64,000 bases of DNA from Escherichia phage vB_EcoM_PTE-Eco15, in the sequence record PQ352352.2; one strand, 5' to 3'. The position numbers and the translations under genes were made by a program. The notes beneath the pieces were generated by a model. It was given only the letters and a program-made list of their open reading frames with translations, searched no databases and was not told where the DNA came from. Below, one piece after another: positions 15,481 through 16,779 of the stretch (position 1 is the first letter of the stretch; every line of letters starts with the position of its first letter).

Positions 15481-16509
15481 ATGTCATCAATACCTTGGAT
15501 TGATAATGAGTTTGCATACCGTGCATTAGCTCATTTACCTAAATTCACACAAGTAAATAATAGTTCAACTTTTAAATTACGGTTTAGATGCCCAGTGTGT
15601 GGAGATTCAAAAACCGACCAAAATAAAGCCCGTGGATGGTATTATGGTGATAATAATGAAGGAAATATTCATTGTTATAACTGTAACTATCATGCACCAA
15701 TCGGAATATATTTAAAGGAGTTTGAACCTGATTTATATCGTGAGTATATCTTTGAAATAAGAAAAGAAAAAGGTAAAAGTCGTCCAGTAGAAAAACCTAA
15801 AGAACTTCCTAAACAACCTGAGAAGAAAATAATTAAATCTCTTCCGTCATGTGTTAGATTAGATAAACTGGCGGAAGACCATCCAATTATAAAATATGTA
15901 AAAGCTCGTTGTATTCCAAAGGATAAATGGAAATATCTTTGGTTTACAACCGAATGGCCTAAATTGGTTAATAGCATAGCACCGGGAACATATAAAAAGG
16001 AAATTTCTGAGCCTCGTCTTGTTATTCCAATTTATAATGCTAATGGAAAAGCTGAGTCGTTTCAAGGACGTGCATTAAAGAAAGATGCTCCTCAAAAATA
16101 TATCACCATCAAAGCTTATCCTGAAGCAACAAAAATTTATGGAGTCGAACGAGTTAAAGATGGTGATGTATATGTTCTAGAAGGACCTATAGATTCACTT
16201 TTTATTGAAAATGGTATAGCTATTACGGGTGGTCAATTAGACCTAGAAGTTGTTCCATTTAAAGATAGACGAGTGTGGGTCTTAGATAATGAACCTCGTC
16301 ACCCTGACACTATTAAACGAATGACTAAATTAGTTGATGCAGGAGAAAGGGTTATGTTTTGGGATAAATCTCCCTGGAAATCAAAAGATGTTAATGATAT
16401 GATTAGAAAGGAAGGTGCAACCCCTGAACAAATTATGGAATATATGAAAAATAATATTGCCCAGGGGTTAATGGCTAAAATGCGGCTATCTAAATATGCT
16501 AAGATTTAA
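15481..16509 (+). CDS. 61: DNA primase gp61
   Basis: 342 aa; zinc ribbon CPVCGDS...CYNC and TOPRIM-like region; recognised as T4 gp61. Confidence 0.95.
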   Translation: MSSIPWIDNEFAYRALAHLPKFTQVNNSSTFKLRFRCPVCGDSKTDQNKARGWYYGDNNEGNIHCYNCNYHAPIGIYLKEFEPDLYREYIFEIRKEKGKSRPVEKPKELPKQPEKKIIKSLPSCVRLDKLAEDHPIIKYVKARCIPKDKWKYLWFTTEWPKLVNSIAPGTYKKEISEPRLVIPIYNANGKAESFQGRALKKDAPQKYITIKAYPEATKIYGVERVKDGDVYVLEGPIDSLFIENGIAITGGQLDLEVVPFKDRRVWVLDNEPRHPDTIKRMTKLVDAGERVMFWDKSPWKSKDVNDMIRKEGATPEQIMEYMKNNIAQGLMAKMRLSKYAKI

Positions 16510-16706
16510 ATCAACCCAACTAAAGCAAATGCTAAATCTACAAATGTATCAAGAGTAACTACTGGAATATTAATACCATGTGCAATTGCAACAGGTGATA
16601 GAATAAAGTTCCAGAGTAAAATTCCTACCATAGCAGAAATAGTAAAAGCTATACGTTTCTTATTACCTTTTATGGCATTAACAAGTGCCATTAATTTTTG
16701 TACCAT
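16506..16706 (-). CDS. Small two-helix membrane protein on the opposite strand
   Basis: 66 aa; strong RBS AAGGAGG 4 nt before the ATG on the minus strand; hydrophobic segments. Confidence 0.5.
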   Translation of the reverse strand: MVQKLMALVNAIKGNKKRIAFTISAMVGILLWNFILSPVAIAHGINIPVVTLDTFVDLAFALVGLI

Positions 16707-16779
16707 ATGTCCTCCTTATTGCTTTATATATTTATTGTATAATTAATCTACTAACCCATGAATTGAAAGGAAAAATAAC

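Follow-up and report, generated by a model that had tools for sequence, protein, structure and literature searches.

A putative small membrane-protein gene between genes 61 and 56 of a T4-like phage and the dam cassette missing beside it

We describe a 66-codon gene located between the genes for DNA primase (61) and dCTPase/dUTPase (56), on the strand opposite to the early genes, in a 64-kb stretch of DNA from Escherichia phage vB_EcoM_PTE-Eco15 (hereafter the window). Taken as a whole, the evidence makes it likely that this is a conserved late gene for an inner-membrane hairpin protein, and that dam is an accessory cassette that is missing here.

Existing annotations list the locus as a hypothetical gene, and the presence/absence polymorphism of dam in Tequatrovirus is already in print, having been noted in a 2026 paper (PMC13390438). 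Absence of dam is the most frequent condition of the locus among T4 relatives, and little is gained there. What the locus does offer is a small membrane gene, probably late, that is under purifying selection in several T-even genera and is missing from the T4 reference records AF158101/NC_000866, where the antisense ORF is unannotated. In addition, dam of T4 and T2 would represent the methylase half of a cassette whose nuclease half has been lost in T4, which bears on the origin of the 'orphan' methylases of phages.

The gap between genes 61 and 56 and its 66-aa ORF

The window is a Tequatrovirus (T4-like) segment whose plus strand carries early genes. A megablast search with positions 15400-17400 matched 738 phage records, the top match being 99% identical; T4 and the window are 96.7-96.9% identical over this region, with the match broken into two pieces. 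From the ORF listing and comparison with other records, we assigned gene 61 (DNA primase, 342 aa) to positions 15481-16509 (+) and gene 56 (dCTPase/dUTPase, 171 aa) to 16780-17295 (+), followed by segF (17270-17959) and soc (17993-18238). The original prediction put the distance between genes 61 and 56 at about 270 bp, and it measures 270 bp. The sole ORF inside the gap, at 16506-16706 (-), encodes 66 amino acids and is identified by the ORF listing and by homology as the orthologue of T4 dam.1 and RB69ORF029w (PHROG 2024). Its stop codon and that of the primase gene are convergent and overlap by 4 nt. The Shine-Dalgarno sequence AAGGAGGA, which is TAAGGAGG with a flanking base, lies at 16710-16717 (-), 4 nt 5' of the ATG, and an (A)AGGAG(G) element precedes the ATG in every lineage examined. 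When the minus strand was scanned for first-ATG ORFs of at least 50 aa, a ribosome-binding site of the GGAGG class was found on just two, the 66-aa ORF and the holin gene t. The ORF had also been said to run against a long block of plus-strand early genes; this is borne out by PQ759887.1, the closest complete relative, where it is the sole reverse-strand CDS in an early/middle block of ~84 kb.

Orthologues of the 66-aa protein are widespread. A tblastn search found 698 phage records, 502 with at least 90% identity and 196, from other genera, with less than 60%. We fetched orthologue loci from the Mosigvirus phages OLB35 and RB69 (RB69ORF029w), the Gaprivervirus phage DK-13 and the Karamvirus phage CkP1, and at every fetched locus the interval from the primase gene to the dCTPase gene contains the ORF, on the opposite strand. 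The 4-nt overlap with the primase stop codon recurs in T4, OLB35, RB69, and CkP1. In DK-13 a homing endonuclease gene sits between the ORF and the primase gene, whereas the ORF abuts the primase stop at the other fetched loci. T4 Dam.1 (T4Tp032, ADJ39749.1, record HM137666) and RB69ORF029w (NP_861719.1) have their length, position, orientation, 4-nt overlap, strong ribosome-binding site, and a NATAAATA box in common with the window ORF, although the RB69-type orthologue is only 54% identical to it. Nothing of substance differs between the window and the T4 Dam.1 locus, except that the window ORF directly adjoins the gene 56 promoter because the dam cassette is missing. The protein also gives a full-length match to the PHROG 2024 profile (E=1.4e-31, residues 2-66 against positions 1-65 of 65), a family without a functional label.

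The pattern of substitution is that of a protein under constraint. Within Tequatrovirus we counted 7-12 synonymous and 0-5 non-synonymous differences (dN/dS 0.09-0.2); the window differs from locus L012 by 12 synonymous and 4 non-synonymous changes, and from locus L009 by 7 and 0. Between genera dS is saturated, and ~50% of the residues are kept. An alignment of 23 sequences from at least five lineages reveals that L8, W32, N33, P38, G44, and P48 are invariant and that A42, D57, and G64 are nearly so, and the window ORF carries the conserved motif W-N-(F/Y)..P..A-H-G..P..L-(D/E) seen in the alignments.

Alternatively, the reading frame might be fortuitous and the DNA conserved for another reason, as a promoter or as the 3' untranslated region or terminator of gene 61. 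The length of the ORF on its own is weak evidence for a gene: when 321 nt of sequence were simulated with a Markov-1 model, 3% of the runs contained an ORF of at least 66 codons from ATG to stop. The ORF is also left out of the T4 reference annotation, and its 5' end contains, on the early strand, a hairpin with an 8-bp stem followed by TAATTTTTGT (16672-16691, +), which is possibly a weak terminator for gene 61 transcripts. However, this hairpin is present in Tequatrovirus only and in none of the other genera. Since the protein is spread more broadly, the hairpin can be ruled out as the cause of the conservation of the ORF. Moreover, substitutions fall mostly at synonymous sites, with a dN/dS of 0.1-0.2, and the frame, length, start, ribosome-binding site, and motif are all kept at ~50% identity, where dS is saturated. 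A fortuitous frame is very unlikely in our estimation. Because dN/dS is low and a motif of residues is conserved, we regard the 66-aa ORF with high confidence as a genuine protein-coding gene.

The dam cassette and the empty site

The original prediction placed dam of T4 between genes 61 and 56, which agrees with the T4 records, and noted its absence from this position in the window, where indeed the gap holds the 66-aa ORF only. A tblastn search with T4 Dam, a check proposed at the time, found no homologue in the 64-kb window (best E = 1.2), while the positive control on the T4 locus gave E = 3e-178. In addition, the motif (D/N/S)PP(Y/F/W) is absent from every window ORF longer than 103 aa. 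The window corresponds to ~38% of a T4-size genome, and the absence of Dam beyond it is inferred from relatives. The closest dam-less relative with a complete genome, PQ759887.1, is 96.7% identical over 24 kb, and contains neither a match to Dam anywhere in its sequence (best E=1.0) nor an annotated methyltransferase. By this inference, DNA of the phage would be without phage-directed GATC methylation.

The number of records in each class gives a wider view. Matches to the ORF of at least 90% identity number 502 records; at least 334 records have the dam-less junction, and 182 have a T4-type Dam of at least 90% identity. These counts argue against relocation of dam and suggest that dam is missing altogether from roughly two thirds of Tequatrovirus records. 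The dam-less locus is not an anomaly, because it is the majority state in Tequatrovirus and the sole state in the sister genera examined.

The ORF had been thought to stand at the locus instead of dam, and if this lineage had exchanged a methylase for a membrane protein, a gap with an ORF and no dam would indeed be left. However, T4 has the order 61 / dam.1(-) / dam / 56, with an ORF that is 97% identical to that of the window, located directly after gene 61 and named dam.1 in the T4T record HM137666. T2-type and other dam+ phages likewise have the ORF beside dam, and sister genera without dam at the locus have it too; the cassette goes in next to the ORF, which stays in place. Such an exchange is scarcely credible. 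Since T4 carries the same ORF next to dam, we are almost certain, from these comparisons of sequence, that the ORF is not a substitute for dam. The original prediction had itself named two observations that would count against it, the same antisense ORF at this site in T4 and a Dam encoded elsewhere in the genome. The former is what we find; of the latter there is no trace in the window or in PQ759887.1. The phage does lack dam at this locus, but not through replacement by the ORF.

What T4 has and the window lacks is a segment of 879 bp, located in T4 between sequences corresponding to the ribosome-binding site of the ORF (…CCTCCTT, ending at 16717) and the Mot box ATTGCTT (from 16718). From alignments, the ORFs of the IMG/VR locus L013, and the spans of the record matches, we place the empty insertion site at 16717/16718 (+/-3 nt). 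It is the same locus that holds the cassette with T4 Dam, a GATC N6-adenine methyltransferase. The T4 segment consists of the stump of a nuclease gene and dam. The segment of T2 and of most dam+ relatives is ~1.42 kb long and comprises a REase-like ORF and dam, and about one third of Tequatrovirus records, T2 among them, carry the cassette. The REase-like ORF encodes 186 aa. In 155 phage records, including that of T2, and in locus L013 it precedes dam with an ATGA overlap. It matches PADLOC REase_II (E=9e-5), and matches Pfam DpnII below the curated cut-off. In T4 the last 28 codons of this ORF remain, and the deletion joins two 8-bp copies of ATCACAAA. Given this anatomy, T4 dam looks like the orphaned methylase of a DpnII-like cassette of the restriction-modification type. 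In 1988 Miner and Hattman reportedly described 536 bp of inserted DNA on the 5' side of dam in T2 as compared with T4, which matches the 540-bp difference that we see between the T2-type and T4 segments.

The empty site in the window is probably ancestral, because all sister genera examined are without dam at this position. The opposite course of events, a secondary and precise deletion from a T4-like dam+ ancestor, draws on the removal of the T4 nuclease gene between the ATCACAAA repeats, which indicates that deletions occur here, and on other T4-like genera that encode Dam elsewhere. However, the order in Mosigvirus, Gaprivervirus, and Karamvirus is primase / small ORF / dCTPase with no dam, and the dam-less spacer of 73 bp is near the 88 bp of Mosigvirus. 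Furthermore, the late box and the Mot promoter interlock in dam-less phages, whereas the cassette has its own early-type promoter and brings its own late box, a pattern that is expected of insertion. We consider secondary deletion rather unlikely.

Promoters and expression of the ORF

A box of the late-promoter type, AATAAATA, is present at 16729-16736 (-), as judged from the sequence and from comparison across lineages. It lies 22 nt before the ATG and matches the consensus TATAAATA (positions -13 to -6) at 7 of 8 positions. Read along the strand of the ORF, the upstream region is ordered …ATTATAC-AATAAATA-TATAAAGCAA-TAAGGAGG-ACAT-ATG. The predicted late start is near 16723 (-), with a leader of ~17 nt. 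In four contexts whose sequences cannot otherwise be aligned, NATAAATA recurs at a distance of 15-22 nt before the ATG. The full box is AATAAATA in dam-less Tequatrovirus and in Mosigvirus, CATAAATA in Gaprivervirus, and GATAAATA in cassette-bearing Tequatrovirus, where it is supplied by the end of the cassette. Karamvirus has only ATTAAATA, which matches at 6 of 8 positions.

The base at -13 of these boxes is A, G, or C, and not T; A or T at this position is common in late promoters of T4-like phages (PMC1524935). The heptamer ATAAATA is depleted in the window, with 22 copies found against 40 +/- 6.5 expected, and in the window a like box stands 17-34 nt ahead of soc, t, 36, and 34, all of them known late genes. 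The HMM scan of RB69 by Nolan et al. lists no late promoter upstream of RB69ORF029w. On balance, these sequence features make it reasonably probable that the ORF is driven by a gp55-dependent late promoter. In that case RNA polymerase with gp55 would transcribe the ORF late in infection from the AATAAATA box, and the transcript would extend, in antisense, over the 3' end of that for primase.

The same short region contains the middle promoter of gene 56, which is homologous to P(M)16.53 of T4, the promoter of the oriA primer. Its MotA box ATTGCTTTA is at 16718-16726 (+), as located by alignment with T4 and record X01416, and its -10 hexamer TATAAT is at 16738-16743 (+), 11 nt after the Mot box. 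We took as a middle promoter a Mot box of the form (a/t)(a/t)TGCTT(t/c)A situated ~12 bp upstream of a TATAAT -10 element; the gene 56 promoter has this arrangement and aligns to the annotated T4 promoter. In X01416 the final base of the dam stop codon is also the first of the mot box. In the window, the late box lies back-to-back with this promoter, P(M)56, on the opposite strand and within the spacer between its Mot box and -10 element.

This arrangement could mean that the main function of the locus is exerted at the RNA level, either by late antisense silencing of primase or by occlusion of the gene 56/oriA middle promoter, with the peptide being secondary. The stops of the ORF and the primase gene are convergent and overlapping with no terminator between them, and the position of the window late box within P(M)56 would suit such a role. 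However, purifying selection acts on the protein, so the peptide matters. The overlap of the late box with P(M)56 is not essential, because the two stand 0.9 kb apart in T4, and in phages of the T4/T2 types generally the distance is 0.9-1.4 kb. In DK-13 the homing endonuclease gene parts the ORF from the primase gene, and hence neither overlap is required. We find a primarily RNA-level function unlikely.

Predicted architecture and possible roles of the protein

The two hydrophobic helices of the original prediction, like the minus-strand frame of 66 codons and its strong Shine-Dalgarno sequence, are recovered, the helices by hydropathy and by AlphaFold2. Kyte-Doolittle means over 19 residues exceed 1.6 for two segments, at residues ~19-42 and ~47-66. 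The N-terminus is basic, with five K/R within residues 1-18 (K4, K13, K16, K17, and R18) that conform to positive-inside charges, and the C-terminus ends in ...DLAFALVGLI with no charge after D57. An AlphaFold2 model based on the 23-sequence alignment has a mean pLDDT of 80 and places helices at residues 2-14, 16-42, and 52-63. From these models, the protein is likely a two-helix membrane hairpin with both termini inside (N-in/C-in). The amphipathic basic N-terminal helix (residues 1-18) would stay cytoplasmic. The first membrane helix would extend over residues ~19-42 with W32-N33 at its middle, and would be followed by a short conserved periplasmic turn, A-H-G-x3-P. The second hydrophobic helix (~49-66) would carry two conserved acidic residues and end without a soluble tail. 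Nolan et al. predicted a membrane segment at residues 21-41 of RB69ORF029w and did not call the second hydrophobic segment transmembrane. Because of this, and because the second segment is short (18 residues) and contains two Asp, a single-pass topology is also possible.

Searches for relatives outside the family returned little. Scans of the 66-aa protein with Pfam, NCBIfam, and PADLOC gave no match, nor did a profile search against PDB sequences or a Foldseek search against PDB; with BFVD as the target, Foldseek recovered members of the protein's own family and nothing else. Apart from T-even small proteins, an exhaustive phmmer search across 1.8 billion representatives brought up just three long repeat proteins (PQQ-propeller-like, SH3-repeat, and eukaryote-like), which we rejected as spurious because their scores are sums of many weak repeats. 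Profile searches covering every ORF of 25 aa or more, both in the window and in the complete genome of a relative, identified no paralogue, which excludes a relationship to Imm, Sp, T, RI, RIII, and Ac. Across all these comparisons the protein showed homology neither to holins or antiholins nor to Imm, Sp, or any other T4 protein. We found no literature that names 'dam.1', and nothing relevant in the literature on T4 late or antisense start-site maps and T4 small-protein profiling. A phage Tn-seq preprint contains no T4 data. The 66-aa ORF is absent from the supplements of CRISPRi-ART, a genome-wide screen of T4, because the screen followed the reference annotation, which omits it.

The features of the protein fit several small membrane proteins of phages and bacteria. 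A holin or pinholin-like lysis protein would, like this one, be small (<100 aa) with two hydrophobic helices and a probable late promoter, and the orthologue A0A482MZV5 is labelled 'Holin' in UniProt. Class II holins and pinholins, for example S68 of phage 21, share with the 66-aa protein a length of ~65-70 aa, two hydrophobic helices, and, probably, late expression. However, the UniProt label is an unverified submitter annotation, and the protein ends in ...ALVGLI without the highly charged cytoplasmic C-terminal tail of holins. It has no match to holin families in Pfam, the lysis categories of PHROGs, PDB, or BFVD. A lysis-cassette context is also lacking: the neighbouring genes are those of replication and nucleotide metabolism (primase and dCTPase), with no endolysin or spanin. 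Moreover, t is needed for lysis, and the phage has a canonical T holin of 218 aa (ATG at 42349). We regard a holin as improbable.

For the predicted hairpin protein, a mode of action can be proposed from the structural model. The protein would act inside the inner membrane by helix-helix contacts of its conserved polar residues (W32-N33, H43, D53, and D57), and would either self-associate or bind a larger membrane protein. In this way it would modulate some late event at the envelope, for instance the timing or inhibition of lysis, or exclusion. Such a late-envelope role is a tentative suggestion; homology, profile, and structure searches found no link to lysis or exclusion. Equally speculative is a broader proposal, that Dam.1 is a late factor of the inner membrane, conserved in all T-even phages, that acts in a late step linked to the envelope or a membrane, for example in lysis timing or inhibition, in exclusion, or in countering a membrane-based host defence. 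If this were so, 60 years of T4 genetics and the recent knockdown screen of the whole genome would have missed its role because the ORF is not in the T4 reference annotation.

T4 Imm and the bacterial proteins AcrZ, MgtR, and KdpF provide plausible working analogies for action by helix-helix contacts. Imm is an 83-aa two-helix inner-membrane protein that confers superinfection immunity. Like the 66-aa protein, all four belong to a small size class, have inner-membrane helices, and contain no enzymatic domain, although they share no detectable sequence similarity with it. In addition, imm lies on the early strand and is itself an early gene; the 66-aa ORF, by contrast, has a box of the late type and the opposite orientation.

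Strand context and annotation of the small ORF

In PQ759887.1, the complete genome of the closest dam-less relative, CDS0233 (the small ORF) is the sole reverse-strand CDS within some 84 kb of early and middle genes, a block that runs from about 93.6 kb to 169.3 kb and continues to 8.3 kb (L019-L022). The orthologue in T4 occupies 17724-17924 (HM137666 numbering) and is absent from the reference annotation (AF158101.6 / NC_000866.4), where the 309 bp from 61 to dam, the site of this conserved ORF, carry no annotation. A genome-wide CRISPRi-ART screen of T4 carried over this omission.

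The small ORF and the primase gene share a 4-nt overlap of their stop codons, an arrangement that is otherwise conserved. In Gaprivervirus DK-13, a homing endonuclease gene (L005:2872-3621) separates the two genes and the overlap is missing; the overlap is therefore dispensable. We also found a hairpin, ATGGCATTAACAAGTGCCAT followed by TAATTTTTGT, on the early strand at 16672-16691 (+), near the 5' end of the small ORF and within its coding sequence. This hairpin, which is found in Tequatrovirus only, may serve as a weak terminator after gene 61.

The dam cassette and its remnant in T4

A 186-aa restriction-endonuclease-like ORF lies upstream of dam and overlaps it in 155 phage records, T2 among them. 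Its product matches REase_II in PADLOC (E=9e-5) and DpnII in Pfam, the latter under the cut-off. In the cassette-bearing IMG/VR locus, this ORF and dam together span L013:1062-2401 (-), and their insertion point corresponds to 16717/16718 in the window. T4 has lost most of the 186-aa ORF by a deletion between 8-bp repeats (ATCACAAA), and only the last 28 codons are left (T4 locus, L002:2821-2919). Because the restriction-endonuclease-like ORF precedes dam in relatives and T4 keeps these 28 codons, T4 dam looks like one half, now orphaned, of a DpnII-like restriction-modification cassette.

Despite the lack of Dam, GATC is strongly depleted both in the window, which carries no Dam homologue (63 observed versus about 207 expected), and in the complete, dam-less PQ759887.1 (200 versus about 567).

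Late-promoter-type boxes near the empty site and across the window

The predicted late-promoter-type box at 16729-16736 (-), which belongs to the small ORF, sits entirely inside the Mot-box/-10 spacer of the middle promoter for gene 56 / oriA, so that a middle and a predicted late promoter are interlocked back-to-back within 26 bp (16718-16743). In T4, by contrast, the cassette holds the late box and the gene 56 middle promoter apart.

Over both strands of the whole window, we counted 22 copies of the late-promoter core ATAAATA against an expectation of 40 +/- 6.5; none of 100 shuffles had fewer than 22. This scarcity would fit with stray late promoters being selected against. Two AATAAATA boxes, in the segments 58428-58459 (+) and 61635-61665 (+), lie 22-23 nt upstream of ORFs of 245 aa (MKSGIYQIKN...) and 236 aa (MDYSKIYNNL...), respectively, each with a good ribosome-binding site. 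The 245 aa ORF has a GIY motif at its start and may encode a homing endonuclease.
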